DNA of 24,000 nt from Acaryochloris marina MBIC11017 (GCF_000018105.1 NC_009925.1:5125015-5149014); one strand, 5' to 3'; counted from the stretch's first letter, positions 2,774 through 20,564 are shown. Translations and numbers: made by a program. Notes: a model not told the origin generated them from the sequence alone.

Positions 2774-3190
2774 CTAACCCACTTTTTTAGACGCCAACAC
2801 CTTAATTTTGGTGACTAGCGTCTTTTTCAGGATTTCGTAATCCGTCGCCGACCCAGAATTGGGTTTAGGAAAAAAGTCTAAGGCCCCCGCCTGCATCAAA
2901 TTAAAAATATTGTCTACATCGGAAGGATGCACACTATTGCTGATGACTAGTATGGGACGGGGAAAGTCCTTCATCACCTTTTCGGTGAATTCTAAACCGT
3001 CCATATTGGGCATCTGCAAATCGGTGCAAATGACATCTGGCATGGTTTGAGCAATAACTCTTAACCCTTCATTCCCGTCCTGGGCAGTGCCCACAACGTT
3101 GACTTCTGGGGCAGAATCCAGCAATCGACTGAGAATCTGGAGGGCAACTGCAGAATCTTCAACTAGGACTACTTTGATCGGATCTGTCAT
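2774..3190 (-). CDS. single-domain response regulator, CheB-type receiver plus linker without a methylesterase domain
   Basis: 138-aa ORF. Receiver residues are present: VEDS (acidic pocket), DLQMPNMDG (phospho-acceptor Asp), VISNS and FFPKP (Lys). From memory, the pattern VLxVDDSA...PDV...D..MP.MDGLEF...M....P.......GA.DF..KP plus the following helix resembles the N-terminal domain and linker of E. coli CheB. The ORF stops before any catalytic domain. Its ATG overlaps the CheA stop (ATGA, 3187-3190). Confidence 0.85.
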   Translation of the reverse strand: MTDPIKVVLVEDSAVALQILSRLLDSAPEVNVVGTAQDGNEGLRVIAQTMPDVICTDLQMPNMDGLEFTEKVMKDFPRPILVISNSVHPSDVDNIFNLMQAGALDFFPKPNSGSATDYEILKKTLVTKIKVLASKKVG

Positions 3191-5520
3191 GACGCAATTA
3201 ACCTCCTTAAGGTCTCGATAAGCAATGTTTGATCAAAATCACCTTTGGTTAGGTAAGCGTTGGCCCCCGCTTCCTGACCGCGACGTTTGTCTTCTTCCTT
3301 CGCTAGGGTTGTGACCAATACAATGGGAAGCTGCTGGTATTCCTGTCTCTGACGAATCTGGGCCGTCATTTCTAGTCCAGTTAAATTGGGCATTTCCACA
3401 TCAGACACCACCGCATCAAAGCGATCAGCCTGCAGCTTCTCCAATCCCTCTTGACCGTCTACTGCAGCAGTGACGTCATACCCAGCCCCTTGTAGAATCC
3501 GTTTCATTTGCGTTCGGATTGGTATGGAATCTTCAACCAACAACACCTTTGATGTCACGGCTTCATGTAAATGTTCGGACAAGGTGAGATCGTCCATGCC
3601 TTGGGTGGCTTGTAGGAAATCTTGGGGATTGAGTACCATACAGATCTCACCATTGCCCAAGATAGTGGCCCCGGTGATATTCCGAATGCGTTTCAGCAAT
3701 TTACTCTGGGGTTTTAGCACAATATCCTGCTGATCTACGAGTTGATCGATAAATAACCCCAAGCGTTCTGAACCAATTTGGAGAATGACACAAGGAATAT
3801 TGGTGCGTTCAGTTTCGTGTCTATCCTGTTCGGTTGGTAATTCAAGAACATCACTTAGCCACATTACAGATAAGGGTTGGTCTTGATCCGTAATAGTAGG
3901 ATGCCCTTCCAACGAAAAGATTTGGTCAGGGGTGACACTGATCATCTTGTCCACATATTCCAAGGGAATCGCGTAAGGATGCTGATTTACCTCAACAATA
4001 AGGACTGCAGTGGTGGTTAAGCTAGAGCTGAGAGTGAGCTGAAAGGTGCAGCCCTGGCTAGGAATCGAACGAACTTGAATGGTGCCTTGTAGTCGCTCCA
4101 CGTTGGCTCGGACCACATCCAAGCCGACCCCTCGCCCCGAAATCTCTGTCACTTGGGTCCGCGTCGAAAAACCGGGTGCAAAGATCAGAGACTGGACTTG
4201 GCTGGTGGTCATGCGGGCTAACTCGGTCTCAGTATGTAGCCCTCGTCTAATGGCCGTCTCTTGGATCTTGGTCAGCTCCAACCCTCGGCCATCGTCCGTG
4301 AGTTCAATGGCAATACTACTGCCCAATTGATACGCCCTTAAGCGGAGGGTAGCTGTTTCCGACTTACCCATCGCCATTCGTTCGGCTGTAGTCTCGATGC
4401 CATGGTCGATGGCATTGCGAACTAAGTGGGTTAAGGGAGCCTGCATCTGTTCCAAGATGTTTTTATCTGCCAGGGTATCTGTGCCTTCTAGAACCAGCTC
4501 AATCTGTTTTTGCTGTTGTTTGGCAAGATCCCGCACCATGCGAGGGAAAAGTTGAAATAGACCGGCCACGGGCAACATGCGCAAATTGCGAATGCCGACT
4601 TCTAATTGGTTAGCCGTAATATCCAAGCGAGTTGAATCTTCTCCCACTTGGGCCTTTAGATTTTCAATCTGAAAACTGAGGGCTGAGAGCCGCTGTTGAT
4701 GAACTTGCAAGACCTGATCCACCAACATGGCATCGGCCGCAGAGAGTTGCTGTTTTAGCGGCGTTAAACTCAACTGTTGGGCCTGTAAATCAGTGGTCCA
4801 TTGCTCCCTAAGGGTGGCTAATTGTTCCACTTCCCCAAGTCTCTGGGCAATTCGAAGTTTCGTAACAGCCAACTCACTCGCCTGAGTCATCAATTGATCC
4901 AGCTTGGCTGCCTCTACCCGCACGGTATCCACCTGATAAGGAGAGGTGGTCGGTGTTTCAGCGGGCTTAGATTGTCCCTGATCGGAGGGAGATTGTTTGA
5001 GAAGTTGATTCAGTTCAGCCGCTAAATCGGGCTCAGTCTCTTCCGCGACTTGTATCAAGGTGGCAGCAGGGTCAATCTCTACAGTTTCATCCCCTTGAAT
5101 GATATCTAGGGTCGCTGCAGGCCCTGAAGGAATGTCCGCATCATCGCCAGCCATCAACTGGGCCATGACGTGGAAAACACTCACATCTGTCTGTTCCCCA
5201 GTCACTGCCGTATGGGCAATTTTACGAACTGCATCCAAACCAGAGTAAAGGAGATCGCATAACCCAGACGATAAAATTCGATCCCCTTGCTCAACCTCAG
5301 ACAAAAGATCCTCCATCTGATGAGTAACGGTCTCGGCATCACCAACCCCCAGCATCCGCGAATCCCCCTTAAGGGAATGGGTTGCTCTTAGGAGTGCTTG
5401 TAACTGCTGTTGATCCTCTGGGTTTTTTTCCAAATGGAGCAAACCTGCTTCTATGGTTTCGATATGTTCGGCACTGGCAGCTTTGTAAAGTCCACGCAGT
5501 TCGTCATCTTCGATGAACAT
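3187..5520 (-). CDS. CheA-type histidine kinase fused to a C-terminal receiver (CheA-CheY hybrid, TaxAY/PixL/HmpE-like)
   Basis: 777-aa ORF. Seen: an Hpt site (ATHSLKGDSRMLG) and a long Pro/Ser/Gln linker plus coiled region. HATPase boxes are N (HLVRNAIDHGIE), G1 (DDGRGL), F (FAPGFST) and G2 (GRGVGLD). A CheW-like P5 segment follows, then a C-terminal REC (VLLVEDS ... VVSDVEMPNLTG ... LTKGDF). Confidence 0.9.
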   Translation of the reverse strand: MFIEDDELRGLYKAASAEHIETIEAGLLHLEKNPEDQQQLQALLRATHSLKGDSRMLGVGDAETVTHQMEDLLSEVEQGDRILSSGLCDLLYSGLDAVRKIAHTAVTGEQTDVSVFHVMAQLMAGDDADIPSGPAATLDIIQGDETVEIDPAATLIQVAEETEPDLAAELNQLLKQSPSDQGQSKPAETPTTSPYQVDTVRVEAAKLDQLMTQASELAVTKLRIAQRLGEVEQLATLREQWTTDLQAQQLSLTPLKQQLSAADAMLVDQVLQVHQQRLSALSFQIENLKAQVGEDSTRLDITANQLEVGIRNLRMLPVAGLFQLFPRMVRDLAKQQQKQIELVLEGTDTLADKNILEQMQAPLTHLVRNAIDHGIETTAERMAMGKSETATLRLRAYQLGSSIAIELTDDGRGLELTKIQETAIRRGLHTETELARMTTSQVQSLIFAPGFSTRTQVTEISGRGVGLDVVRANVERLQGTIQVRSIPSQGCTFQLTLSSSLTTTAVLIVEVNQHPYAIPLEYVDKMISVTPDQIFSLEGHPTITDQDQPLSVMWLSDVLELPTEQDRHETERTNIPCVILQIGSERLGLFIDQLVDQQDIVLKPQSKLLKRIRNITGATILGNGEICMVLNPQDFLQATQGMDDLTLSEHLHEAVTSKVLLVEDSIPIRTQMKRILQGAGYDVTAAVDGQEGLEKLQADRFDAVVSDVEMPNLTGLEMTAQIRQRQEYQQLPIVLVTTLAKEEDKRRGQEAGANAYLTKGDFDQTLLIETLRRLIAS

Positions 5521-5631
5521 GGTTGTTATGCTTGCTTAGATAAAGGGTGGGGAAAAGCAGGAAAGAGCTTTCGCTTTGGAGTCGAAAGATCCCAGACAAT
5601 CAAGGGTTTCTTTCCTAAAAATAAGGCGGTC

Positions 5632-6990
5632 TTAAACCGTAACAGCCAATTGTTGAGCAACGTCAGTCAGCTGTTCTGTAGTGGTATTCACCTCACTCAC
5701 GGCAGAGGCGGTTTCTTGGGCACCCAGGTTAATGGTGTTAATCGCGGAAACCGCTTGCTGAACCACGACCGCCTGCTGTTTAGAACTCTGAGCAATCGTT
5801 TGACTACTTTCAAACACCTCCTGAATGGACTGGGCCATTTTGACAATCACGTCATTGGTGGATTCCGCTAGTTCAATCCCCTTCGTTGCCGTTTTGGTCC
5901 CTTCATCGGTTACCATCACAGTGCTATTAATCGAAGCTTGAATATCCGCAACCAAAGTATTAATCTTGTCAGCCGAACTGCGGCTTTGGTCCGCCAGCTT
6001 TCGAATTTCACCGGCAACCACCGCGAAACCTTTTCCTTCTTCACCAGCTCGGGCTGCTTCCACCGCTGCGTTTAGGGCCAGCATGTTCGTTTGGTCCGCA
6101 ATGCCAGCCACCAGCTGAGACACCGTCGAAATCTGTCCCGTTTGTTCACTCAACTGCATAATTTGTTCAGCAATTTCTCCTACTTTGGTTCGGAGTTCGC
6201 CAATCCCTTCCACCGTCTCAGCCACGGATTGGGCTCCATTCTTAGAGAGTTCTAGGGCTTCCTGGGCCCCTTTGGCTGATAAATCAGCTTGCTGGGCCGC
6301 TTGCATGGAAGACATCCCTAGCCCTTCAATGGTGACCGTTGTATCTTTAACGGATTGGGTTTGTTCGTTGATGATTTGCTCTTGTTTGCCAACGGTTTCC
6401 GCAATGGCGTAAGAGCTGGTGGCCACAGATCCGACGGAATTGGTCAATACTTTTGAAGCTTGTTGAATGGTCCAGAAAATAAATCCTAGAACGATCAAGT
6501 TCAAGGCCAACACAACGTACTGGGTATTGCTTAGCCCTTGAACGTTATTGGTGGCTGCATTTTCAGCGGCAGACACAGCTTCGTTGGTTAACTCAAAAAA
6601 TTTTTCGCTCTCATTAATGACCTGAGCTTTCATACTAGGATTTGACCGATATTGCTCAATCATCTGTCCCAATACTTGCCATTCAGCTTCTACAGCCTGA
6701 ATTTTGTCTAGGAACGCGGCATCTGTGGCCTTGGGCAAACCCAGTTCAGCATCTCCGTTAATCAAGCCGTTGATGAGACCATCAATTTTCTGGCGAAGTT
6801 GATTATCCGGTTTGCCATTCGTTTCCAATTTGACCAAGCGCTGGGTGGCCCCCCGAACAATACCTGCATTGTTCACAACCGTACCGTCGTTTGTGTTGCG
6901 ACCGATGTTGCTAACGGTGTAAGCAGTGGTGCCTAGGGCAAAAACCGTCAAGCCTGCAACGGTCCATCGGAGTTGGTTTGTAATTTTCAT
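5632..6990 (-). CDS. methyl-accepting chemotaxis protein with a PilJ-type periplasmic sensor and no HAMP domain
   Basis: 452-aa ORF with two TM segments ([20 protein letters not shown] and [20 protein letters not shown]). The ~130-aa periplasmic region contains the PilJ/NarX-like motif [15 protein letters not shown]. The MCP hairpin tip is highly conserved ([38 protein letters not shown]). The signalling domain follows TM2 directly. Confidence 0.9.
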
Positions 6991-7093
6991 TGAATTGCTG
7001 GTGTCCTTTGACTAGTAAAGGTTTGATACGAAGTCCGCAAATAGCGGTCATAAAAAGATTGATCGGCCATCCCTGGCCCTAGGTTCAGATCAG

Positions 7094-8377
7094 CTAAGCC
7101 ACACTCAAGACTCCTTGGCTAATCATTTTGGGTAGATCCAGAAGATTGAGGTATTGATTGTCGTAGAGAATCATGCCCTGCAAAAACTCACGGTAAGTAG
7201 CGGAGACAGCGGCTGGAATCGGAGCAATCTGGGCTGATGATAAAGCAGTCACATCGATCACCTCATCAACGGTGAGACCTGCCACCACATCGTCCACCTC
7301 AAAGACGACTGCTTTTTGAGGTGACTCCCTGGAGTCGTCGGACAGATTTAAAGCTTTTTGGATATTCACTAAGGTCATCACTTCCCCTCTTAAATTGATA
7401 TTGCCCACAATATGTTGGGGACAACAGGGAATGGGGGTCACGGACCGAATATTGATAAATTCTCGAACCCAACTTAAGTCCAAACCAAAATACTGATTGC
7501 CTAGTCCCACAACGGCTAAAGACCGCAAATCAGCAGGATCGGTGTCGGTGGGTGCCTCTCTTAAACTGGCCGCCCGTTGCCGAAAAATGTCTTGATCGGC
7601 CTCAGACGCATCGGGGCAGTAACGCTCAAAAAAAGTACCCAGCTTAGGAGGTTGAATGGCAGTGGGTTCAGGCTCAAATGCCTCTTCCAGAGCAGCCTCT
7701 AATGGCTGATCTGAGTCAGACTCAGCCGCTTCTAGATCAGCCGTTAACATTTGTTCTGAATCAGAGCCTGATTCAGAATCATTCAGTAACGCTTCCCACT
7801 GTTGATGCAGGGCTGCGATCTCATCCGGATCTTCAACCTCTTCTAGGGTCTCTGATGATGGTTCTGATTCTAGGTTGAGTGGAATTTCTGGAAAGTCGGG
7901 CTCTGTCCTGTCCAGTTCAGATTCCCAGGCCAGGCTAGCGACCTGATCCGGCTGGCGGATCAGGGTTTCTGGGTTGAGAAACACAATAGGGACCTCTAGT
8001 TCCCGGGTGACGCCTTTGATGTAAGGGGAAGCTTGAGACCTTCCGTATTCAACAGATGTATCAATTGCAGCTGCGCCAAACGTCAGTACATCTTGGACCT
8101 GATTAACGACGATCCCGACTTGAATGCCTTGCCAGTCCATAATGATGACGGCATCCTTGAGCTTACAATTGGGCTGAGATTGGCCCAATCGACAAGCTAA
8201 ATGCATAACGGGGACAATTTTTCCCCGTAGATTTAGCATGCCAATAATATCTGGGGGAGCTTCTGCCAGAGGCGTTAGTTCCGGTAAAGGAAAAACTTCT
8301 TGTACGAGCTCAGCATCAATTCCATACCACAATTCTTGCAGCTGAAAGATCAGATAAGCTTGATTGTCCATAACCAT
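7094..8377 (-). CDS. tandem (double) CheW-domain scaffold protein with a long acidic linker
   Basis: 427-aa ORF. The first CheW-like module is at about residues 5-150 (YLIFQLQELWYGIDAELVQEV ... IIGMLNLRGKIVPVMHL). The second is at about residues 285-427 (LAVVGLGNQYFGLDLSWVREF ... IVGNINLRGEVMTLVNI). Between them is an Asp/Glu/Ser-rich low-complexity segment of about 130 aa. The start could be Met1 (8377) or Met3 (8371). Confidence 0.85.
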   Translation of the reverse strand: MVMDNQAYLIFQLQELWYGIDAELVQEVFPLPELTPLAEAPPDIIGMLNLRGKIVPVMHLACRLGQSQPNCKLKDAVIIMDWQGIQVGIVVNQVQDVLTFGAAAIDTSVEYGRSQASPYIKGVTRELEVPIVFLNPETLIRQPDQVASLAWESELDRTEPDFPEIPLNLESEPSSETLEEVEDPDEIAALHQQWEALLNDSESGSDSEQMLTADLEAAESDSDQPLEAALEEAFEPEPTAIQPPKLGTFFERYCPDASEADQDIFRQRAASLREAPTDTDPADLRSLAVVGLGNQYFGLDLSWVREFINIRSVTPIPCCPQHIVGNINLRGEVMTLVNIQKALNLSDDSRESPQKAVVFEVDDVVAGLTVDEVIDVTALSSAQIAPIPAAVSATYREFLQGMILYDNQYLNLLDLPKMISQGVLSVA

Positions 8378-8404
8378 ATGTCCTTTGGAAAAATATTGAA
8401 CCCA

Positions 8405-9562
8405 TTAGCGACTCATTTGGGGGGAAGGAATGTACTTTTCGATGGCGTTGAGTAATGTCTCTTTTTCAACGGGTTTGGTTAAATAGTGGGTTGATCCCGC
8501 CATTTGTCCCTTTACCTTATTTAAAAGGCCGTCTTTGGCCGTCAGCATAATTACAGGTAGGTTTTGGAACTGTGGGATAGATCTCACCGTGCGACAGAGT
8601 TCAAAACCATCAACATCAGGCATCGTGACGTCTAACAGCAACAGCTCCACTGAATTTGAATTGTTGTTCAGCACCTGTAGGGCATCTATCGCACTATTGG
8701 CGGTCAAGACTTTATAGTGATCTCCGATGGCCCGTTTAATCATGGTTTGGACAACGAGGCTGTCGTCCACACTTAATATTACTGGCAAGCCTTTTTGTTC
8801 TGTTGTCGATGGTTGAGCCGTAATTTTAGGCTGAGCTCCCGTGAAGGTTATCCACCCTAGCTTGTGCCAACGGAGATAAAGCTGTCCCAATGCCAACGGG
8901 TCTTGCTTCATTTCAGATGCAATTTGCAACAAAGATCTCTGACCGTCTATCCATGTCTGTAAATGTTTCTGTGCATGAGCATCATCAACTGCATGATTTT
9001 TGTTGATTTGGATGGGATGGGGAATGGCATCAATGGACGGAATATCCGGTTCAAGGTCAGTCCAGGCCTGTTGACGCTTCACTAATGTTGCTTGCAGTTG
9101 TTGCCAATCTAGTCCATGCCGATCTTCTCCATAACAAAGATCAAACTCTGCTTGAGCATTGGTTACCAGTCGGCCTTCATAAGGTAAAAGCTGGTCTAAC
9201 CTCAAGACCGTTTGGTTAAATATCAATTTCTCGATCTGCTCCCAGGTAAAGAGATTGATGCGAGTATAAATAGATAAATAAGAATGAATGGAGGTTGGAT
9301 CCTTTACCTTTTTCTCTGCCATTTTGATGGCAGCATTGATAATTTTCAGATTCAACAGTTTCCCAATTTCTTGTGAGAAGTCTATGGGATTAGGCAAGTC
9401 ATTACCGATATAAGTAATCGCTCCTTCTTTGAAGAAAGCGACTTGTGAGCGGACTATATTTTGGGTATTGATAGAAACATCAATATAGGCGGCTCCACTA
9501 AAAGCGTCTTGTCGGAGTTCTTCTAAAGATTGCTGTAATTGTCCAGCTTGGAACTGAAGCAT
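8405..9562 (-). CDS. PatA-type response regulator (N-terminal PATAN domain + C-terminal REC), paralog 1
   Basis: 385-aa ORF. The C-terminal REC has SVDDS, LLLLDVTMPDVDG, MLTAK and YLTKP. The ~260-aa N-terminal region has the architecture of PatA/PixG/PilG(Tax)-type regulators. First gene upstream of CheW, as in cyanobacterial Tax/Pix loci. Confidence 0.85.
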   Translation of the reverse strand: MLQFQAGQLQQSLEELRQDAFSGAAYIDVSINTQNIVRSQVAFFKEGAITYIGNDLPNPIDFSQEIGKLLNLKIINAAIKMAEKKVKDPTSIHSYLSIYTRINLFTWEQIEKLIFNQTVLRLDQLLPYEGRLVTNAQAEFDLCYGEDRHGLDWQQLQATLVKRQQAWTDLEPDIPSIDAIPHPIQINKNHAVDDAHAQKHLQTWIDGQRSLLQIASEMKQDPLALGQLYLRWHKLGWITFTGAQPKITAQPSTTEQKGLPVILSVDDSLVVQTMIKRAIGDHYKVLTANSAIDALQVLNNNSNSVELLLLDVTMPDVDGFELCRTVRSIPQFQNLPVIMLTAKDGLLNKVKGQMAGSTHYLTKPVEKETLLNAIEKYIPSPQMSR

Positions 9563-9818
9563 TATTGACCATCCAGATGAAGCATCATTTTTTCTTTTTA
9601 TACAGGAGAAAAAAACAATCCCAGTATTCTAGTGCCGCGATAAAAAAGCTCAGGTATATAGAGTCCTATAGAGCCTTCTTGTTGAGCGACATCAACTTAT
9701 ACTTAACCGTTGATAATCGCAATCATATACCTGGGTTGCTGTCTAATGTCATGCTTGACATCCTTTGGCGCAAAAAGGGATCTATCTCCTTAGCATGCCC
9801 AACAGTTAGGGGATTCTT

Positions 9819-9844
9819 TTAATTTTTCCTTAAGGAAAAATTAA
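9819..9844. repeat. perfect 26-bp AT-rich palindrome TTAATTTTTCCTTAAGGAAAAATTAA (possible operator; function unknown)
   Basis: Checked base by base: positions 9819-9831 are the exact reverse complement of 9832-9844. It lies in the 363-bp gap between the two PATAN-REC genes, 82 bp after the stop of paralog 2 and about 270 bp before the start of paralog 1. The confidence value refers to the palindrome existing, not to a function. Confidence 0.9.
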
Positions 9845-9925
9845 TTTCTTGTTATGAGTGTTTCAATTGGCTGAAATCTCCTTATGGTCAGGCTTTAGGG
9901 CTGGGTGGGGGATCATAACCAGCGG

Positions 9926-11092
9926 TTAATGAAGTCTCCAACTCATCACTTTACTGGACGGCAGGTTCTTTTCTATTACATTGAGTAACTTTTCTTTTCT
10001 GACAGGTTTGGTTAGATAGTGGGTTGATCCAGCCATCTGGCCCTTAACCTTATCAATCAATCCGTCCTTGGCCGTCAGCATAATCACCGGCAAATCTCTG
10101 AACTTAGAAATGCCTCGAACCGTTTTACAGAACTCGATGCCATCGATATCGGGCATTGTCACATCCAATAGCATCAACTCTATGGGATAGCGATTTAGAA
10201 GATTGAGAGCTTCAACAGCGTTACTAGCGGTCAAGAACCGATAGTATTCACATAACGTTCGTTTAAGCATGGTTTGGACAACGACGCTATCATCCACGCT
10301 CAAAATTAAGGGTAAGCTCTGTTGAGCAGTTGTAATGGGGTTTCCGCCTAAATATGGGAGCTGATCACCAGCGAAGATTACCCAATTCATCTTTTGCCAA
10401 TGTAAATAAAGATGGCCCAATTCCAGTGGATCACGCTGTAACCCCTCGGCAATATCCAGTAAGGATCGGTTGCCATCAATCCATATTGTCAGATGCTGTC
10501 TAGCATACTCATCCTCTACCGCTTCATAATTCCCTTGCACAATGGGCTGAGGGATCGCGTCCATAGACGGGATTGCAGGAGTCAGAGAGGCCCATGCTTG
10601 TTGGCGCTGGGTTAAGGACAAACAGAGCTGCTGCCAATCAAAACCGTGGCCATCCTCACCATAGGCCAGATCAAACTCAACGGTCTCTTCCGTTCTCAGG
10701 GTACCGGCATAGGACCAGAGTTGATCGAGATGAAATACCACTTGCGATCGCATCACCTTTTCCAAGGCGTCCCAGCCAAACAGATCGAGGCGAAAGTAAA
10801 TGGCTAAGTAAGCCAGAATTGAAGTGGAATCTTTGGCCCTTTTTTCTGCTAACAGCATGGCCGCCTTCATGACTTTAAGCTTCAGCTTTTCGCCAACCAG
10901 TTGGGAAAACTCAAGAGGCGTAGGTAAGGTTTTACCTGCGTAGGTAATTGCCCCTTTATGAAAGGCAATAACCCGTGATCTGACTTTGTCCTGTTGGCCA
11001 AGGGCTGCATTGATATAGACGACACCTGAGAACTCTTCCTGGTGTAGTTGGCCTAGCGTTTTCTGTAATTTTCCTGCCTCGAACTTAAGCAT
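9926..11092 (-). CDS. PatA-type response regulator (PATAN + REC), paralog 2
   Basis: The track ORF runs 9926..11122. I place the start at the second ATG (11092, MLKFEAGKL...) for two reasons: it is preceded by GGAGG (gggaggaatgaaATG on the minus strand), and it aligns with the N-terminus of paralog 1 (MLQFQAGQL...). REC motifs are SVDDS, MLLDVTMPDIDG, MLTAK and YLTKP. Homologous to paralog 1 over its full length. Confidence 0.85.
   Translation of the reverse strand: MLKFEAGKLQKTLGQLHQEEFSGVVYINAALGQQDKVRSRVIAFHKGAITYAGKTLPTPLEFSQLVGEKLKLKVMKAAMLLAEKRAKDSTSILAYLAIYFRLDLFGWDALEKVMRSQVVFHLDQLWSYAGTLRTEETVEFDLAYGEDGHGFDWQQLCLSLTQRQQAWASLTPAIPSMDAIPQPIVQGNYEAVEDEYARQHLTIWIDGNRSLLDIAEGLQRDPLELGHLYLHWQKMNWVIFAGDQLPYLGGNPITTAQQSLPLILSVDDSVVVQTMLKRTLCEYYRFLTASNAVEALNLLNRYPIELMLLDVTMPDIDGIEFCKTVRGISKFRDLPVIMLTAKDGLIDKVKGQMAGSTHYLTKPVRKEKLLNVIEKNLPSSKVMSWRLH
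10744..10751. repeat. HIP1 octamer GCGATCGC
   Basis: Exact match read in the sequence. Confidence 0.95.
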
Positions 11093-11392
11093 TTCATTCC
11101 TCCCCCAAGAGAAAAGTGCCAACTTTAGAAGTCTGTAAAGGGCGACTTTTGAATACTCAGCTTACTAGTTAAAAATCTAGATAAAGCCCACCCTTAAAAA
11201 GAGTTGAATCTAGAATAGACGGATATTTTTAAATTCGCTGTTGTTAGTGGCACTGTGCACTTTTAAATTAGTTTGCCCATTTGAAAGGCGGATTGTTGCA
11301 GGAGGATTTGGGAAGAAAATAATGCTCAAGAAAATAAATTCAGACACTAAAAAAGTTAAGTTCTGATTGAAAGAAAAATCCTTAAAATCATC

Positions 11393-11435
11393 ATTGATTT
11401 TGTATCGGATGTAACTAAATTATTGAATTTTGTAT
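11393..11435 (+). repeat. two copies of ATTGA(A)TTTTGTAT spaced 29 bp start-to-start in the divergent control region
   Basis: ATTGATTTTGTAT at 11393-11405 and ATTGAATTTTGTAT at 11422-11435. The background is AT-rich, so a chance match is possible. Confidence 0.4.
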
Positions 11436-11445
11436 AAAATAATAC
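11432..11445. promoter_or_regulatory. GTA-N8-TAC motif (NtcA-type consensus) with TAAACT 20 nt downstream
   Basis: GTATAAAATAATAC matches the palindromic NtcA core GTAN8TAC. TAAACT (11466-11471) fits TAN3T at about the class-II spacing toward arsM. It is a single match in roughly 600 bp of AT-rich DNA, so it may well be fortuitous. Confidence 0.2.
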
Positions 11446-11569
11446 GGTTTTTATTCATGGCTTATTAAACTCGGCAGTCTCTTGCAGAAGGCTCAGAATT
11501 TTATCTATAGATTGGGAAACTCTCAGGGAAAACTCATACCGCTTCGTTTTAATGAGTCTGTAAGTTAAG

Positions 11570-11581
11570 GGGGCTAGCCCC
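11570..11581. repeat. GC-rich 12-bp palindrome GGGGCTAGCCCC in the arsM upstream region
   Basis: Perfect palindrome followed by TCAGTCCCTTTGTTT. It could form a 4-5 bp GC stem with a CUAG loop. It is too short to call a terminator or attenuator with confidence. Confidence 0.5.
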
Positions 11582-11686
11582 TCAGTCCCTTTGTTTAATG
11601 AGCAATACGCGCTTTCGACCCATACTCAAATCCTCTCGATTGATGTCTTGAAGCTGCAAAAAATAAACAAACATGGCATAGTGCCC

Positions 11687-11702
11687 ATGAATGACCATTC
11701 AT
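11687..11702. promoter_or_regulatory. 7-2-7 inverted repeat ATGAATG-AC-CATTCAT, candidate ArsR/SmtB-type operator upstream of arsM
   Basis: Exact 7-bp arms, verified position by position. The core TGAA-N6-TTCA matches my recollection of the TGAA..TTCA core of 12-2-12 ArsR/SmtB operators. It sits 23 nt upstream of the arsM ATG (11725) and overlaps a second imperfect repeat, CATGGCA-TAG-TGCCCATG (11672-11689). Confidence 0.35.
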
Positions 11703-11724
11703 TACAAATCCATCGTTGACCAAT

Positions 11725-12693
11725 ATGACGTATTTAGAATCCGCAGCAAAGTTTTACAGTCAAGTCGCTGAAACCCCAGAAGTGGGCTTATGTTGTGTCC
11801 AAAGTACTCCTTTGCAACTGCCGGGCCTGGTGGTGCCTCCGCAAATGCAGGAAATGAACTATGGATGTGGTACAACCGTTCATCCGACAGAATTATCGGG
11901 TAACCCTACGGTGCTGTATGTTGGCGTGGGCGGTGGCTTGGAAGCCCTGCAATTTTCCTACTTCTCCCGTCGCCCCGGCGCTGTGGTTGCAGTAGATCCA
12001 GTGGATGAAATGCGCAAAGCGGCTGCCCGCAACCTGGAAATTGCCGCCAAAGAAAATGAGTGGTTCGATACCAGCTTTGTCACGATTAAAGAAGGCGACG
12101 CCTTTGCCCTACCCGTCCCTGATAACTCCGTGGATGTTGTCGCTCAAAACTGCCTCTTCAATATTTTTGAGCCAGAAGATCTGTCTCGAGCCCTACACGA
12201 AACCTATCGCGTCCTCAAGCCTGGTGGTCGCTTGGTCATGAGTGACCCCATTTCCACTCGCCCCATTCCAGAGCATCTCCAGCAGGATGATCGGTTAAGA
12301 GCCATGTGTTTGTCTGGTGCCTTAACCTACGAACAATATGTTCAGCGCATTATCCATGCTGGCTTTGGACAAGTCGAAATTCGTGCCCGTCGCCCCTATC
12401 GCCTGCTCGATCAGGAAAACTACAAGCTAGATCAGCATTTGCTATTAGAGAGCTTAGACTCCGTTTCCTTTAAGGTAGATATTGCCGATGATGGGGCTTG
12501 TGTGTTTACGGGCAAGATGGCGGTTTATACCGGACCTGAAGAGTATTTTGATGACAAGGCTGGTCACATTTTGAGTTTAGGCATTCCCCTCGCCGTGTGT
12601 GACAAGACGGCAGCCAAACTCGCCAAAGCCCATCCCCAAGCAATTATGATCACCGACTCAACTTGGTACTACGACGGTGGAGGATGTTGCTAA
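11725..12693 (+). CDS. arsM: arsenite S-adenosylmethionine methyltransferase ArsM
   Basis: SAM motif I (VLYVGVGGGLE). The ArsM-type conserved cysteines are in their expected context: GLCCVQ, NYGCGT, VAQNCLFNIF and RAMCLSGAL. Further ArsM-like motifs are PDNSVDVV and RVLKPGGRLVMSD. The track starts at TTG 11716; I prefer ATG 11725. The protein ends in a vicinal Cys pair (GGGCC). Confidence 0.85.
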   Translation: MTYLESAAKFYSQVAETPEVGLCCVQSTPLQLPGLVVPPQMQEMNYGCGTTVHPTELSGNPTVLYVGVGGGLEALQFSYFSRRPGAVVAVDPVDEMRKAAARNLEIAAKENEWFDTSFVTIKEGDAFALPVPDNSVDVVAQNCLFNIFEPEDLSRALHETYRVLKPGGRLVMSDPISTRPIPEHLQQDDRLRAMCLSGALTYEQYVQRIIHAGFGQVEIRARRPYRLLDQENYKLDQHLLLESLDSVSFKVDIADDGACVFTGKMAVYTGPEEYFDDKAGHILSLGIPLAVCDKTAAKLAKAHPQAIMITDSTWYYDGGGCC

Positions 12694-12726
12694 ACGACGC
12701 CGTTTGTTGTTGTGGATCGAGCTGTT

Positions 12727-13722
12727 ATGACTGTATCAACTAACTCAACCCTCACCCCGTTTGCCCAAAAGCTGGTTGCCCCCCTGACGAAGCAGACAAT
12801 TTCAGTGCTGCAAATTAATTTAGGGCGACGGTGCAACTTAGCCTGTAGCCACTGCCATGTCGAGGCTAGCCCTAAGCGGACAGAAGAGCTATCCCCAGAG
12901 ATCTGTGAGCAGTTGGTTGAATTGATTCATCGATTCCCTCAGATTGAAACCGTAGACTTAACGGGGGGTGCCCCGGAGATGAATTACGGCTTTCGTCCCC
13001 TAGTAGAGGCGGCTCGCTCCCACAACAAAGAAGTCATTGTCCGTTCAAATTTAACCATTTACTTTGAGCCGGGTTTTGAAGATTTACCGGACTATTTTGC
13101 TCAGCATCAACTACGAGTGGTGGCTTCCTTGCCCTGTTATCTGGAGCAAAATGTAGACAAAATGCGGGGTGATGGCGTTTTTGACAACTCAATCAAAGCG
13201 CTGCAGCGGTTGAATCAGTTGGGCTATGGCTCCGATTCGAACTTAACGCTGAACCTAGTGTATAACCCTCAGGTGCCGACTACCCTGGACTTTGCCCTAG
13301 CGCCAGATCAGCAGCCCTTAGAACTGGCCTATAAACAACATTTAGGGGAGCAGTTTGGGATTACGTTTAACCATCTGTTTGCGATTACCAATCTCCCCAT
13401 CGGCCGCACCAAGTTTCATCTGGAACACCGTCAGCTTCATCAGCCCTATCTGCAGTTTTTGGAAGGTCACTTTAATGACTCGACCGTTGAGCATTTAATG
13501 TGCCGCAATGAGCTATCCGTGGACTATCTGGGCAATATCTATGACTGCGATTTTAACCAAATGGAAGAGATCCCTGCCACGACCCCTAAGGGGGAACGAT
13601 TAACGGTGAAGAAGCTATTGGATGCTGGCAGTCTCGATGTAATTGAGGACGTGAAAACAGCGCCCTATTGCTATGGCTGCACCGCTGGGAGTGGTTCGAG
13701 CTGCGGCGGTTCTTTGTTATGA
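12727..13722 (+). CDS. arsS: arsenosugar-biosynthesis radical SAM protein ArsS (radical SAM / Cys-rich family)
   Basis: Radical SAM cluster motif CNLACSHC. The C-terminal Cys-rich tail is characteristic of the family (CRNELSVDYLGNIYDCDFN ... APYCYGCTAGSGSSCGG). It lies immediately downstream of arsM, as in Synechocystis. The track starts at GTG 12712; ATG 12727 is preferred. Confidence 0.85.
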   Translation: MTVSTNSTLTPFAQKLVAPLTKQTISVLQINLGRRCNLACSHCHVEASPKRTEELSPEICEQLVELIHRFPQIETVDLTGGAPEMNYGFRPLVEAARSHNKEVIVRSNLTIYFEPGFEDLPDYFAQHQLRVVASLPCYLEQNVDKMRGDGVFDNSIKALQRLNQLGYGSDSNLTLNLVYNPQVPTTLDFALAPDQQPLELAYKQHLGEQFGITFNHLFAITNLPIGRTKFHLEHRQLHQPYLQFLEGHFNDSTVEHLMCRNELSVDYLGNIYDCDFNQMEEIPATTPKGERLTVKKLLDAGSLDVIEDVKTAPYCYGCTAGSGSSCGGSLL

Positions 13723-13750
13723 CATCACACACATTTTTAAAGGTAAATCT

Positions 13751-14503
13751 ATGAATCTTCGTCGCTGGAAAAAAATTCAACCGATATTATTGGCCGCCTT
13801 TGCCTTTTTGGTGATTACGGCTTCACCCGCTTGGGCCGCAGATGGGGGTGGGTTTAACCCCCAACAGCTCTTGAAGGATGCTTTATTGTGGATCGAGAGT
13901 TTAGGTACTGTAGGTGCGATCGCATTTATCGGTATCTATATTGTTGCCACTGTGGCCTTTTTACCCGGCTCCGTTTTGACCTTAGGAGCTGGTGTTGTTT
14001 TCGGGGTGGTTCAAGGCTCTTTTTTGGTCTTTATTGGCGCTACCATCGGTGCGACTCTCGCATTCCTCGTGGGCCGATATGCGGCTCGGGGTTGGATCTC
14101 TAAAAAAATTGAAGGCAACGATAAATTCGCAGCCATTGATCGGGCTGTGGGCAAAGAAGGATTTAAGATTGTTCTGTTAACCCGATTGTCCCCCATCTTC
14201 CCCTTTAACCTCCTCAACTATGGCATGGGCGTTACGGGTGTCTCTCTTAGAGATTACTTCTTCGGCTCCGTGGGCATGATTCCCGGCACCATTATGTACG
14301 TCTATCTGGGATCTCTCGCGGGGAATATTGCTACCCTCGGCACAGGCGATCAACCTTCTAACCCCACCATTACCTGGGCCATCCGCATTATCGGTTTTGT
14401 GGCCACGGTTCTTGTGACCGTCTATGTGACGAAAGTGGCCCGCAAAGCCTTGGCAGAAGCAGTCCCTGAAACTGGTACTGCGGTTGAGCAAGAGCTAAGT
14501 TAA
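13751..14503 (+). CDS. TVP38/TMEM64 family (DedA superfamily) membrane protein, paralog A, with a signal-peptide-like N-terminus
   Basis: The family core is present (VATVAFLPGSVLTLGAGVVFG ... LAFLVGRY ... LLTRLSPIFPFNLLNYGMG) with multiple TM segments. The track start (13673) overlaps arsS by 50 nt. ATG 13751 (MNLRRWKK...) follows AAAGG and gives a hydrophobic leader ending SPAWA/AD. Confidence 0.8.
   Translation: MNLRRWKKIQPILLAAFAFLVITASPAWAADGGGFNPQQLLKDALLWIESLGTVGAIAFIGIYIVATVAFLPGSVLTLGAGVVFGVVQGSFLVFIGATIGATLAFLVGRYAARGWISKKIEGNDKFAAIDRAVGKEGFKIVLLTRLSPIFPFNLLNYGMGVTGVSLRDYFFGSVGMIPGTIMYVYLGSLAGNIATLGTGDQPSNPTITWAIRIIGFVATVLVTVYVTKVARKALAEAVPETGTAVEQELS
13916..13923. repeat. HIP1 octamer GCGATCGC
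   Basis: Exact match read in the sequence. Confidence 0.95.
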
Positions 14504-15183
14504 TGCTGCAAGAAGGACTACGCCATCGGCAAGTGAAAGGTCGCAGACGATTACTAGCAGGATTGGTAGGGGTGTTGTTGCTTCCCTTCGCCATCCGGTA
14601 TGTTCCCTTGCTGTTTGACCAGATGCATTTGGTGGAGTTTGTTCAATCCCATGGTTTATGGGGGGCGATCATCTTTATCCTGCTGCATATTGTCGCCACG
14701 GTGTTGGGGGTCCCTGGAGTCATTTTGACCATCGTGGGAGGTGTCTTGTTTGGCCTGCTGTGGGGGAGCTTTTTATCCCTAGCAGGAGCCACCTTGGGAG
14801 CCATGGGAGCCTTCTGGATGGCCCGTTACCTATTGTTAGATTGGGCCCAGAGACGTGTGCGAGATCGCAAGCTGCTCTGTACGTTTAACCAAGCCGTGCT
14901 CCAGCATCCATTCAGCTTTGTCCTGATTGTTCGCTTTGCGCCTATTTCTCCCTTTAATTTAGTGAATTTCCTGTTTGGCATGACCACCATTCATTGGTTT
15001 CCCTACAGTTTAGGAACGCTGATTGGAATTATTCCTGGGGTGATTGCCTATACCTGGATCGGGGTTGCCGGGAATGATGCCATGCATGGTAAAGGCCCTT
15101 GGCCCTTGGTGATTGCCTGTACCTGCCTAGCGGTGCTGTCGGCAATGCCTTTGTTACTGCGTAAGAAGCGATCGCTGACTTAA
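14503..15183 (+). CDS. TVP38/TMEM64 family (DedA superfamily) membrane protein, paralog B
   Basis: Same family core (VATVLGVPGVILTIVGGVLFG ... GAFWMARY ... IVRFAPISPFNLVNFLFGMT). Its ATG overlaps the stop of paralog A (TAATG at 14501-14505). The N-terminus is basic and probably cytoplasmic (RHRQVKGRRR). Confidence 0.8.
   Translation: MLQEGLRHRQVKGRRRLLAGLVGVLLLPFAIRYVPLLFDQMHLVEFVQSHGLWGAIIFILLHIVATVLGVPGVILTIVGGVLFGLLWGSFLSLAGATLGAMGAFWMARYLLLDWAQRRVRDRKLLCTFNQAVLQHPFSFVLIVRFAPISPFNLVNFLFGMTTIHWFPYSLGTLIGIIPGVIAYTWIGVAGNDAMHGKGPWPLVIACTCLAVLSAMPLLLRKKRSLT
15168..15175. repeat. HIP1 octamer GCGATCGC
   Basis: Exact match read in the sequence. Confidence 0.95.
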
Positions 15184-15205: not shown

Positions 15206-15595
15206 CTAAACCAGAAGCTGCCACAGAATCACAAATAGAGACAAGATAGACCCGACAAATCCCAACGACCGCAAAACTGGTACGCCAATAATGTAGGCAA
15301 AGGCATGAAAGACCCTGCAGGCCACCATAACGATTGCGGTCAGATTAATCAGTGGGTTGGCAGTTCCCGACAACTGAACGACGAGCAGGGTCACCACCAA
15401 CATCGGTAAATTTTCATAATGGTTGCGCTGAGCCCGCTCTGCCCGTTGAGCCCAGGGGGGAATCTCTGGCATAGTGTCCCGGTTGCTGGTGGCCCATTCC
15501 ATTCCCCCTTCTGCAAACCGCGCCAGGGTGGGGATGTAATTGAGGGGAAGAGACCACATGGCTAGTGCCAGGGCACAAAATAATACTGTTGTCAT
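15206..15595 (-). CDS. MAPEG family membrane protein (microsomal glutathione S-transferase-like)
   Basis: 129-aa ORF with four hydrophobic segments and the MAPEG signature region RAERAQRNHYENLPMLV. Convergent with the ars/TVP38 operon, with 22 bp between the stops. Confidence 0.75.
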   Translation of the reverse strand: MTTVLFCALALAMWSLPLNYIPTLARFAEGGMEWATSNRDTMPEIPPWAQRAERAQRNHYENLPMLVVTLLVVQLSGTANPLINLTAIVMVACRVFHAFAYIIGVPVLRSLGFVGSILSLFVILWQLLV

Positions 15596-18262: not shown

Positions 18263-19267
18263 CTATGGCTTGTCAATCTTTGATCGGAGGATAGGGGTTG
18301 TTGCAGTTTGAGATTGCTTTGTGTCTAACCACGCTAGACCTGCCCCCAAGGCTTCGGCAAGGGTGTTCATCAATCGATACAAAGCGACACTGCCCAACGC
18401 TACCCCGTAGGAAAGGGTGGAGGCCTCGGTCAGGACGCCGGGGCGAATCATCAGCTGACAAACGGTGAGTTCAAACACGCCGACTCCCCCTGGAATCCCA
18501 GGAGTGACAAATCCCAGCAGCCAACCAATACTGAAAATGCTAATCAAACGCGGAATCGCTTCAATCTCTACAGGCGTAAGGGCTTGGACGGTGAGAGCAA
18601 ATCCCAGACCCCTCAGGACAATAATGCTAATTTCACCCAGTAAAGGACGCCAGGGATAGTGCTTGAGCAGGAAGGGTTTAGGTCTTCTTTTCGATTTGGA
18701 TTTAGAAATAACGGCTCCGAGTTGAGACAGCCGTCGAATCAGAAACCGCAAAATTTTAGGATGGACAATAACTAAGGCAGCTAGTAGTCCCAAGCCTGCC
18801 GTCCATAGCCCCCCCTGCGGTACGCTTAATAACCCCAGAATCAACCCTGCTGAAATCATTAGAAGAGTGTCGAGAATGACACTAAGGGAGGCAGCGGTGA
18901 GAGGAATTCCTACGTTTTGGGCAGCAAGGGTTCGACCATAAAGGTGGAGGAGATTGCTGGGTAAGTATTTGGCAATATTAGTGGTTAGGTAAATCTGGGT
19001 TGCCCAAATATTGCTGACGGGATGTCCTAAATCCTCTAAAATCCAGCCCCAAACCCACCCAGTCCAGGTAAAGGCAAATAGGGTGATACCGGTTGCGATC
19101 GCAACGCTAGCCCAAGCCGACAGAGTAATCTGAATGGCTGCAATCGCCTGCCAATGCTCGAATAGGGCTTTCCCTAAAAAGGCCAAAACCGCCATCAGCA
19201 AGCCAGCGAAAAAAACGGACTTATAGCTTGCCCATAGCTGCTTCACCCAGCTCCATCGCTGCTCCAT
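18263..19267 (-). CDS. UPF0104 / lysyl-phosphatidylglycerol-synthase-TM-like (flippase-like) integral membrane protein
   Basis: 334-aa polytopic ORF. It has a basic loop (SKSKSKRRPKP) at mid-length and the TPGIPGGVGVFE motif typical of the MprF-flippase-like UPF0104 family. Confidence 0.7.
   Translation of the reverse strand: MEQRWSWVKQLWASYKSVFFAGLLMAVLAFLGKALFEHWQAIAAIQITLSAWASVAIATGITLFAFTWTGWVWGWILEDLGHPVSNIWATQIYLTTNIAKYLPSNLLHLYGRTLAAQNVGIPLTAASLSVILDTLLMISAGLILGLLSVPQGGLWTAGLGLLAALVIVHPKILRFLIRRLSQLGAVISKSKSKRRPKPFLLKHYPWRPLLGEISIIVLRGLGFALTVQALTPVEIEAIPRLISIFSIGWLLGFVTPGIPGGVGVFELTVCQLMIRPGVLTEASTLSYGVALGSVALYRLMNTLAEALGAGLAWLDTKQSQTATTPILRSKIDKP
19095..19102. repeat. HIP1 octamer GCGATCGC
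   Basis: Exact match read in the sequence. Confidence 0.95.
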
Positions 19268-20491: not shown

Positions 20492-20564
20492 GGCTCAGTA
20501 GCTCAGTGGTTAGAGCAGGGGACTCATAAGCCCAAGGTCGCAAGTTCAAATCTCGCCTGAGCCA
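20492..20564 (+). tRNA. tRNA with CAT anticodon (elongator Met or lysidine-modified Ile2 type); CCA not encoded
   Basis: Manual fold:
- acceptor GGCTCAG/CTGAGCC, 7 perfect pairs, with discriminator A;
- D arm GCTC-AGTGGTTA-GAGC;
- anticodon arm GGGGA-CTCATAA-GCCCA;
- variable AGGTC;
- T arm GCAAG-TTCAAAT-CTCGC.
The D arm and anticodon loop resemble my recollection of E. coli tRNA-Ile2. Three non-Watson-Crick pairs lower confidence: 27-43 G.A, 31-39 A.G and 51-63 A.C. Confidence 0.75.

Follow-up and report, generated by a model that had tools for sequence, protein, structure and literature searches.

To our knowledge, experimental support in arsenosugar synthesis extends no further than the first two steps, those of ArsM and ArsS; cyanobacteria also make arsenosugar phospholipids. 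Proteins of the COG0398/TVP38 branch of the DedA superfamily occur widely, and some bacteria cannot live without them; we know of no COG0398 member with an established substrate, nor of any bacterial COG0398 protein shown to scramble lipids. The eukaryotic VTT proteins act as scramblases and certain bacterial DedA proteins as flippases of undecaprenyl phosphate, and the COG0398 proteins, whose commonest reported association is fusion or adjacency to pyridine-nucleotide-disulfide oxidoreductases, have been proposed to be phospholipid scramblases (PMC10127716). The characterised ArsS adenosylates DMAs(III) to DDMAA, the trivalent DMAs(III) being its substrate (PMC13598754). Two questions meet at the locus described here: how arsenosugars are turned into glycerol/phosphate derivatives and membrane arsenolipids, with or without a membrane-crossing step, and what the substrate of COG0398 proteins is. 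In the window (the whole 24,000-nt stretch of the Acaryochloris marina MBIC11017 genome that was analysed) arsM and arsS are followed by two genes for membrane proteins, VTT-A and VTT-B. VTT-B would be a concrete and testable candidate for both fields, as a DedA protein specific to one pathway and not essential; its loss should be measurable as a chemical phenotype in arsenic speciation.

The TVP38/YdjX subfamily COG0398 (E. coli YdjX and YdjZ, yeast Tvp38, Synechocystis Slr0305) has PF09335 and the re-entrant-loop motifs in common with the window pair; the source names are 'TVP38/TMEM64 family' and 'YdjX', and tandem paralogue pairs occur in the subfamily. Compared with COG0398 at large, VTT-B represents a narrow clade encoded almost always downstream of arsS. 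The UptA/DedA undecaprenyl-phosphate flippases (COG0586) belong to the same superfamily but to a different subfamily, and offer as mechanistic template the proton-motive-force-driven flipping of a phosphorylated lipid carrier, although the VTT-B clade keeps two conserved arginines only and no conserved acidic residues. With the model for UptA-type flippases (NF052604) VTT-A reached 23.3 bits (cut-off 250) and VTT-B gave no match.

Other described systems resemble the locus in layout. ArsQ (in arsQML), ArsP and ArsJ are likewise membrane proteins encoded in operons of organoarsenical enzymes (PMC8552651), but their fold is unrelated and there is no homology, Pfam finding nothing but the VTT domain in our pair, for which a transport function is putative. 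In mercury resistance (MerT/MerC with the class-I disulfide oxidoreductase MerA) the likeness lies in a membrane protein coupled or fused to a MerA-like oxidoreductase; however, no mer genes are present, the oxidoreductases found beside VTT genes fall below the MerA equivalog cut-off of 454 bits (402 and 372 bits), and the window itself has no such enzyme. The non-cyanobacterial ArsS clusters with MTAP, TIGR04282 and TIGR04283 contain an ArsS orthologous to that of the window (45–51% identity), and in 10 of 45 loci a VTT domain embedded in the same-strand cluster. In contrast to the window, where MTAP, TIGR04282 and TIGR04283 are missing, these clusters mostly have the VTT domain as a fusion or a pair with an FAD disulfide oxidoreductase.

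The arsM-arsS-VTT-A-VTT-B locus

ArsM (322 aa) matches the NF038099 AsSugarArsM model at 577.9 bits (cut-off 400), as an arsenosugar-type As(III) SAM methyltransferase, and also Pfam Methyltransf_11 and Methyltransf_25; its residues 2–322 align to NF038099 positions 1–321, which supports the start codon at 11725. ArsS (331 aa, cysteine form) matches TIGR04167 at 424.4 bits (cut-off 300), PF04055 at 53 bits and PF12345/DUF3641 at 176 bits. In alignment A1 the cysteines of its CxxxCxxC motif (C36, C40, C43) are invariant, as are the C-terminal C315, C318 and C326, and it has more than 8000 homologues, with at least 70% identity across cyanobacteria. By sequence, the two proteins are orthologous to the enzymes that form dimethylarsenite and then attach 5'-deoxyadenosyl to it, and from this orthology the window's ArsS would adenosylate DMAs(III) to DDMAA. 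As for the statement of the initial annotation that only the ArsM and ArsS steps have assigned genes, its part on the later steps is partly outdated, since NCBIfam names both TIGR04282 and TIGR04283 'arsenosugar biosynthesis glycosyltransferase'; an MTAP-type phosphorylase is also a recurrent ArsS neighbour.

Table 1. Features of the locus (window coordinates)
Feature	Position	Strand	Basis	Spacing
AT-rich intergenic region, presumed promoter and 5' leader of arsM	11123–11724	+	GC, lineage comparison	
arsM	ATG 11725, stop 12693	+	ORF call and sequence reading	
arsS	ATG 12727, stop 13722	+	ORF call and sequence reading	33 nt 3' of arsM
VTT-A	ATG 13751, stop 14503	+	ORF call and sequence reading	28 nt 3' of arsS
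VTT-B	ATG 14503, stop 15183	+		start overlaps VTT-A stop by 1 nt (TAATG)
MAPEG gene, convergent	15206–15595	minus		22 nt past VTT-B

ORF calls and sequence reading confirmed the layout first described, with its four same-strand frames, two short gaps and one overlap, and the convergent gene noted downstream is a MAPEG gene (Table 1). AAAGG is found 8 nt 5' of the VTT-A start codon. The earlier view that no hairpin or terminator separates the frames also holds, no convincing terminator having been found in the scan: between 11000 and 15800 two terminator-like sites were observed against 5.3 expected from shuffles, the sole plus-strand site (13698–13712, 6-bp stem) lies within the arsS coding sequence, and both intergenic junctions fold more weakly than their own shuffles (z = +1.56 and +2.29). 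Gene order and the spacing of 33 nt, 28 nt and 1-nt overlap are the same in Acaryochloris sp. CCMEE 5410 (L081), a Thermosynechococcaceae genome (L174) has the order together with the 1-nt A/B overlap, and the order is seen again in L092 and L088. All the sequence features of a single operon (one strand, short or overlapping junctions, no internal terminator, conserved order) are present, and one predicted operon is the best explanation for the arrangement.

The AT-rich control region described upstream, at about 590 bp, measures about 600 nt in our analysis, and GC is 0.356 in 11001–11500 against roughly 0.45–0.54 over most of the window. Two conserved islands in this spacer (11514–11537 and about 11672–11724) do not differ between the window, L081 and L092, which is more diverged, whereas the remaining spacer differs, and they are confined to these loci. 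Rfam gave no match in the spacer, and its one plus-strand promoter-like match does not exceed what chance would give over the region scanned.

VTT-A and VTT-B as non-equivalent paralogues

Against PF09335, the VTT domain (cut-off 33.9), VTT-A (250 aa) scores 104.9 bits and VTT-B (226 aa) 78.2 bits, both spanning profile positions 1 to about 122 of 123; the two are paralogues with 42% identity over the core. The DedA/VTT re-entrant-loop motifs (PG; R-x2-P-x2-PF-N) are present in both clades, P72-G73, R145, P148, P151, F152, N153 and N156 (A numbering) being at least 90% conserved in each; the fixed differences between A and B are located in the two re-entrant loops, while both proteins keep the core VTT motifs. 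An AlphaFold model of moderate confidence (pLDDT 73.5) is helical with breaks at 69–71 and 145–149. The PDB sequence search gave no match and Foldseek none with E ≤ 0.001; the family apparently has no solved structure.

VTT-A is a TVP38/YdjX-type (COG0398) membrane protein of the DedA superfamily, in a conserved core A clade that mixes arsS-linked, arsM-linked and PNDR-linked members, PNDR being a MerA-like FAD disulfide oxidoreductase which, with thioredoxin and CcdA genes, is the commonest partner in this clade. VTT-B falls in a distinct clade of its own, and its family is narrow (446 matches at E ≤ 1e-10; 35 cluster representatives at E ≤ 1e-30 out of 1.84 billion). We propose as membership rule for the B clade that the protein is encoded directly downstream of arsS, with VTT-A optionally between. 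arsS is directly upstream of VTT-B relatives in 3 of 4 sampled genomes and 16 of 17 evaluable metagenomic loci, L100 and L090 being the exceptions to this arrangement. Of the 21 B-type loci, 15 have VTT-A immediately 5' of VTT-B, and the stop codon of the one often overlaps the start codon of the other; the two are tightly or translationally coupled in many genomes; five arsS-linked B-type loci have no adjacent VTT-A, which indicates that a heteromer is not obligatory. The paralogues are non-equivalent: VTT-B is arsS-specific, and VTT-A is part of a conserved, chiefly oxidoreductase-partnered clade.

Linkage of VTT genes to arsS

A VTT gene lies immediately 3' of arsS in 10 of 33 evaluable cyanobacterial arsS loci (binomial p of about 1e-26 if chance is set to 4e-4 per slot, and 9e-20 if it is set to 2e-3), and adjoins arsS, arsM or arsC in 14 of 35. 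In the reciprocal survey arsS was upstream of VTT-B relatives far more often than of distant VTT proteins, for which the count is 4/29 (Fisher p = 7e-8). The enrichment of TVP38 genes beside arsS, on which the initial annotation had made its proposal depend, was thus found. In the arsM-arsS loci of Nostocales and Microcystis there is no adjacent VTT gene, which indicates that not every such locus needs the module.

Could the VTT genes have a general role in membrane homeostasis or thylakoid biogenesis, as proteins of the Slr0305 type, and share the operon by inherited synteny with no part in arsenic metabolism? The top 120 matches of VTT-A have at least 68% identity and come from several cyanobacterial orders, many of its close relatives lie away from ars genes, and a part in thylakoid membrane processes has been proposed for VTT-A relatives (PMC3836016; bioRxiv 10.1101/2025.11.06.686923). 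In one array study neither arsenite nor arsenate induced arsM of Synechocystis (slr0303; PMC4010505), so that arsenic induction of the operon should not be assumed. We nevertheless consider such a role very improbable. VTT-B relatives at 44–82% identity follow arsS in loci that are otherwise rearranged, with two ArsM types, PiT inserted or not, A present or absent, and classical ars operons such as L002; VTT proteins of at least four clades adjoin arsS, arsM or arsC, as do fused forms in other phyla, where VTT or a VTT::PNDR fusion lies within ArsS-MTAP-TIGR04283-TIGR04282 clusters; and about 0.6 Mb of cyanobacterial arsS flanks contain no VTT gene elsewhere.

Given the neighbourhood linkage and the clade-specific association with arsS, the VTT pair, and VTT-B in particular, is very probably coupled functionally to the ArsS pathway, and VTT-B is a strong candidate, on genomic evidence, for a missing membrane step of arsenosugar synthesis. 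The idea of the pair as an arsenic membrane module therefore stands as regards linkage to arsM-arsS beyond chance, and calls for refinement in that the paralogues are not equivalent. The NCBIfam models and the literature searched contain no link of VTT proteins to arsenic.

Possible cargo and the oxidoreductase association

The reading that we prefer, with somewhat less than even confidence, is that the four genes form one operon from which VTT-A and VTT-B would be made in matched amounts, and that together, as a heteromeric translocator in the membrane, they would move some product made after the ArsS step. As cargo, a lipid carrying an arsenosugar or a lipid-linked arsenosugar intermediate would be most likely, taken from one membrane leaflet to the other by scrambling or flipping, the only activity experimentally shown for the superfamily. 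PiT transporters co-occur with VTT-B in L099 and L102, so arsenate uptake is probably not the task of VTT-B. That VTT-B with VTT-A is a flippase or scramblase dedicated to arsenosugar phospholipids or a lipid-linked arsenosugar intermediate seems to us unlikely; if true, a bacterial COG0398/TVP38 protein would for the first time have a defined natural substrate.

All the linkage statistics would fit equally well if the pair transported a soluble organoarsenical or metalloid, exporting a product or intermediate (arsenosugar, DDMAA or a dimethylarsenical) or importing a substrate, an explanation that we regard as rather unlikely. arsS-VTT is found inside classical ars resistance operons with ArsR, an aquaglyceroporin, ArsH and ArsC (PiT-ArsR-MIP-ArsH-ArsC-ArsS-VTT in L002), and L009 has the arrangement ArsC-VTT-HAD; DedA proteins have been linked to selenite uptake and indium extrusion (PMC8679861), and arsQML is a precedent for a layout of enzymes plus permease (PMC8552651). 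However, PiT and MIP channels already handle arsenate and arsenite in several loci, and conserved cysteines are missing from both clades, which speaks against thiol-bound As(III) as cargo; the lack of conserved acidic residues in VTT-B points the same way as regards soluble substrates. Moreover, no DedA/VTT protein is known to have moved a soluble substrate after reconstitution.

The flipping of a lipid does not account for the strong partnership between VTT-A relatives and the disulfide oxidoreductase, thioredoxins and CcdA. A 515-aa oxidoreductase adjoins core VTT-A relatives in Nodularia, Coleofasciculus, Xenococcus, L172 and L173, often accompanied by Trx, Prx and DsbD_TM genes; a PNDR-arsM-VTT-A operon is present in L022 and L026, and in L022 arsS comes after Trx-like, CcdA, Trx and Prx genes. 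The oxidoreductases are of the MerA-like FAD/NAD(P)H type with a CxxxxC redox motif and fit NF004991 at 855 and 758 bits; this subfamily is fused to VTT, in both domain orders, next to arsS in Proteobacteria, Binatia and others, and an oxidoreductase is adjacent in about 26 of 59 distant VTT loci. These data, and the trivalent state of the ArsS substrate DMAs(III) (PMC13598754), would suit VTT proteins that translocate no arsenical and form the membrane part of a thiol-redox module (MerA-like oxidoreductase, thioredoxins, peroxiredoxin, CcdA) supporting ArsM/ArsS chemistry, for instance by keeping catalytic cysteines or arsenicals reduced. We judge this quite unlikely for the window pair: no oxidoreductase lies near it, nor in L081, L174 or any of the 21 B-type loci, the arsS-specific clade (VTT-B) differs from the oxidoreductase-linked one, and the VTT proteins have no redox-active cysteines, which leaves their role in such a module itself unexplained.

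If the pair is indeed a dedicated flippase or scramblase, the recurrent pairing of VTT and disulfide oxidoreductase could, more broadly, be an unrecognised membrane-plus-redox module of metalloid metabolism across phyla. The clusters of VTT, MerA-like oxidoreductase and ArsS in several phyla suggest an undescribed redox component of organoarsenical metabolism. The redox link of VTT-A was not among the expectations of the initial annotation.

Organization of the predicted arsM-arsS-VTT operon

Our analysis places four plus-strand genes in one compact block (see the table). The first two match NCBIfam models named 'arsenosugar biosynthesis arsenite methyltransferase ArsM' (NF038099) and 'arsenosugar biosynthesis radical SAM (seleno)protein ArsS' (TIGR04167), and each of the other two, VTT-A and VTT-B, carries one VTT domain. 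Reading of the junctions gave the same numbers as the initial annotation: arsS follows arsM after 33 nt, VTT-A follows arsS after 28 nt, and the stop codon of VTT-A overlaps the VTT-B start in a TAATG. The view that no hairpin or terminator separates the genes also held, as the terminator scan returned 2 sites vs 5.3 expected by chance, its sole plus-strand match being a 6-bp stem within the arsS coding sequence, and the folds of the two intergenic junctions are less stable than those of their own shuffles. A convergent MAPEG gene lies 22 nt past VTT-B; it was rejected as a member of the system, since it recurs in Acaryochloris only and has no match in the 80 arsS loci surveyed. In Acaryochloris sp. 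CCMEE 5410 (L081) the neighbours are the same as in the window, the junction spacing is identical, and VTT-B is 97% identical. Searching plasmids for near-identical copies of the operon DNA gave no match.

Features of the window
Feature	Position	Strand	Basis or content
NAD-dependent epimerase/DUF1731 gene	639-1559	+	
Chemotaxis-like cluster	2774-11122	-	CheY, hybrid CheA, PilJ-type MCP, CheW, two response regulators
First upstream island	11514-11537		GGGAAACTCTCAGGGAAAACTCAT
Second upstream island	11672-11733		block of about 60 nt reaching into the arsM ATG
Four-ORF block	11725-15183	+	ORF calling
arsM	first ORF of 11725-15183	+	NF038099, 577.9 bits (cut-off 400)
arsS	second ORF	+	TIGR04167, 424.4 bits (cut-off 300); Pfam Radical_SAM and DUF3641
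VTT-A	third ORF, 13751-14503	+	one VTT domain, PF09335, 104.9 bits (cut-off 33.9)
VTT-B	fourth ORF, 14503-15183	+	one VTT domain, PF09335, 78.2 bits (cut-off 33.9)
LPG_synthase_TM-like membrane protein	18263-19267	-	
tRNA gene	20492-20564	+	
DDE_3/HTH transposase	22275-23384	+	

Linkage of VTT genes to arsS

An ArsS alignment was used to collect arsS loci from species-representative genomes, 80 in total (35 cyanobacterial, 45 from other phyla); we called their ORFs, searched them with the window proteins and clustered all ORFs without bias. Once ArsS itself and antisense shadow ORFs were set aside, three neighbour families recurred most often: methyltransferases of the ArsM or ArsM-like kind, in 28 loci; genes with a VTT domain, counted together with the oxidoreductase to which they fuse, in 26 loci (14 from cyanobacteria, 12 from other phyla); and TIGR04282/TIGR04283, in 25 loci, nearly all non-cyanobacterial. 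A VTT gene lies on the same strand within 400 bp downstream of arsS in 10 of 33 evaluable cyanobacterial loci, and one adjoins arsS, arsM or arsC in 14/35; elsewhere in about 0.6 Mb of cyanobacterial arsS flanks there was none. Cyanobacterial genomes carry about two COG0398 genes each, as read from a copy-number table (PMC10127716). The neighbourhood survey proposed in the initial annotation thus finds TVP38 genes enriched beside arsS, because 10 of 33 loci correspond to a binomial p of about 1e-26 when each neighbouring slot is given a chance rate of 4e-4, and to 9e-20 when that rate is raised five-fold.

The two VTT proteins share 42% identity over the VTT core. A tree built from every VTT sequence gathered to that stage places VTT-B in a separate clade, which also takes in the second VTT gene from each arsS-VTT-VTT locus, and on the A side arsS-linked, arsM-linked and oxidoreductase-linked genes are intermixed. 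VTT-A is highly conserved, with more than 8000 matches, the best 120 at 68% identity or above. VTT-B is narrow: it has 446 matches at E<=1e-10, whose identity drops to about 50% outside Acaryochloridaceae and Thermosynechococcaceae, and at E<=1e-30 just 35 of the 1.84 billion cluster representatives match. Among its distant relatives (49-53% identity), the order is arsM-like, arsS, VTT, VTT in L088; arsM-like, one ORF, arsS, VTT, VTT in L089; and arsS, VTT-B in L091; in Xenococcus (L090) the B-like gene stands by itself.

The reciprocal question was approached by a metagenome scan with an alignment of the B clade, which yielded 21 B-type loci (44-82% identity) and, as control, 59 distant VTT loci (29-42%). 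ArsS is encoded directly upstream, adjacent or with only VTT-A between, in 16/17 evaluable B-type loci, vs arsS nearby in 4/29 evaluable control loci (Fisher p = 7e-8). VTT-A is present in 15 of the 21 B-type loci, a PiT transporter is inserted in some, and the ArsM is of the arsenosugar type in some loci and in others a longer, ArsM-like protein that scores 315-353 bits on an ArsM model, below the cut-off. Because B-type loci vary in VTT-A, PiT and ArsM type, synteny inherited within one lineage fails to explain the arsS link. The linkage to arsM-arsS claimed in the initial annotation therefore stands and, judged from gene neighbourhoods, is strong, above all for VTT-B, which bears out the initial interpretation in part; the mechanism proposed there stays a candidate. 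That the VTT genes are unrelated housekeeping is effectively excluded for VTT-B by these linkage data.

We regard the four genes as an arsenosugar gene cluster that probably has a DedA-family membrane component of its own. NCBIfam release 20 holds no model for VTT-A, VTT-B or their arsS-linked relatives, and the source databases name both proteins only 'TVP38/TMEM64 family protein'. We found no paper combining arsenosugar or ArsS with DedA or TVP38 in the open-access literature and bioRxiv, a search that leaves absence unproven. In Synechocystis sp. PCC 6803, arsM is slr0303 (PMC4010505) and slr0305 is a Tvp38 homologue (PMC3836016); slr0304 is only 'hypothetical' in one paper, and the supplements of a Synechocystis arsenic-array study do not mention the slr0303-slr0305 genes. 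The gene numbering suggests an arsM-arsS-TVP38 layout with slr0304 as candidate arsS; if so, the model organism shares this layout, seemingly unremarked so far.

Other genes recur at arsS loci. An OmpR/PhoB-type response regulator and a histidine kinase lie divergently just upstream of arsS in seven of them (L001, L015, L016, L020, L029, L031 and L032), which have the order arsS-VTT-A'-VTT-B with no adjacent arsM; the pair may be a dedicated two-component regulator. A PiT/PHO4-family transporter of phosphate, and presumably also of arsenate, is found between arsM and arsS in Nostocales (arsM-PiT-arsS in L007, L010, L011 and L014), together with VTT-B in L099 and L102 (PiT-arsS-VTT-B), and in L002 (6258-7373), making it a second membrane component that recurs in arsS clusters. 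A HAD-family hydrolase occurs near arsS-VTT in L002 (14904-16655), L004 (10891-12708), L009 (15764-16480), L088 (2203-2904) and L089 (7733-9405), often accompanied by a methyltransferase of about 300 aa; the hydrolase could be a phosphatase acting on arsenosugar phosphate. A HAD hydrolase and a second methyltransferase are additions at several cyanobacterial loci.

Partners of VTT-A and the putative membrane step

Close relatives of VTT-A (70-73% identity) in Nodularia, Coleofasciculus, Xenococcus and two more genomes have no ars genes nearby and adjoin a gene for a 515-aa FAD pyridine-nucleotide-disulfide oxidoreductase (PNDR), often accompanied by genes of the thioredoxin-like, peroxiredoxin-like and CcdA/DsbD_TM types. 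VTT-A is usually partnered by a disulfide oxidoreductase. On model NF004991 this oxidoreductase subfamily scores 855 bits when stand-alone and 758 bits as a fusion; both forms lie below the MerA equivalog cut-off. Beside arsS, the oxidoreductase is fused to VTT in a deltaproteobacterium, in Binatia and in Burkholderiales, Methylococcales and Rhodospirillales. One further genome, L035, has the domains reversed, with the oxidoreductase N-terminal; the other fusions are in L040, L055, L057, L064, L065, L070 and L076, and split pairs occur in L037 and L045. Such a fusion is on record for COG0398 proteins, in an account where its association with ArsS clusters is unmentioned (PMC10127716). In two cyanobacteria a PNDR-arsM-VTT-A operon is divergent from arsS (L022, 2961-10984; L026, 152-5974), and on the divergent strand of L022 the order is Trx-like, CcdA, Trx, Prx, one ORF, ArsS, so that this locus merges a VTT-A-type thiol-redox cluster with arsenosugar genes. 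One rival reading is that the VTT proteins support a thiol-redox module. In ENA sample ERZ25039505, contig L091 carries arsS-VTT-B without VTT-A, and contig L173 a core VTT-A with the oxidoreductase and a rhodanese gene; if the two share one genome, B pairs with arsS and A with the oxidoreductase.

In several non-cyanobacterial phyla, VTT and the NF004991 oxidoreductase lie in same-strand clusters with ArsS, an MTAP-type phosphorylase, TIGR04283 and TIGR04282, for example MTAP-ArsS-VTT::PNDR-TIGR04283-TIGR04282 in L055 and VTT-PNDR-ArsS-x-MTAP-TIGR04283-TIGR04282 in L045. Genes for an oxidoreductase, a glycosyltransferase or an MTAP are absent from the window. The reaction of ArsS is the adenosylation of DMAs(III), which yields DDMAA (PMC13598754). 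From these recurrent neighbours we propose that the MTAP-type phosphorylase would take adenine off, that activation of the arsenoribose phosphate would fall to TIGR04282, a CofC-like nucleotidyltransferase, and that TIGR04283, a GT2 glycosyltransferase, would hand the activated arsenoribose to an acceptor. The initial statement that the later steps have no assigned genes needs correction, since both families are named 'arsenosugar biosynthesis glycosyltransferase'; we know of no experiment behind that name. TIGR04283 is weakly similar to polyprenyl-phosphate glycosyltransferases, among many GT2 families. The embedding of a VTT protein in the MTAP/TIGR04282/TIGR04283 set would fit a membrane step in the pathway.

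The core VTT motifs are kept in both clades, and the fixed A/B differences sit in both re-entrant loops (FLPG vs GVPG, PIFPF vs PISPF, Y185 vs W185); the only conserved charged residues in VTT-B are two arginines. Thiol-bound As(III) is an unlikely cargo, as neither clade has a conserved cysteine. Membership of UptA was rejected (23 bits vs a cut-off of 250). AlphaFold modelled VTT-B with moderate confidence (pLDDT 73.5); a PDB sequence search and Foldseek with this model found no match, leaving no solved structure for comparison. The frequent stop/start overlap suggests that synthesis of VTT-A and VTT-B may be matched and that the proteins may form a heteromer. The initial annotation had the pair moving an arsenical intermediate or flipping an arsenic-containing lipid. 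A rival to the latter is that the pair exports or imports a soluble organoarsenical; we favour translocation by the VTT pair of an arsenosugar lipid or lipid-linked intermediate, because lipid movement is the sole activity demonstrated in the superfamily.

The upstream spacer

The operon is preceded by a spacer of about 600 nt (36% GC), beyond which lies the unrelated chemotaxis-like cluster, whose two response regulators match only a receiver domain. Two islands in the spacer have the same sequence in the window, in L081 and in L092, a more diverged locus, and the remaining spacer has diverged; the second island contains CATGGCATAGTGCCCATG and ATGAAT-GACC-ATTCAT. Rfam and repeat searches upstream of arsM gave no riboswitch and no notable repeat, and the islands have no Rfam match. 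An operator or 5'-leader element is one possibility for these islands. In L174 (Thermosynechococcaceae), a gene for an NAD-dependent epimerase/DUF1731 protein (1744-2667) immediately precedes arsM; the window has one too, about 10 kb upstream of arsM, which may be a coincidence.
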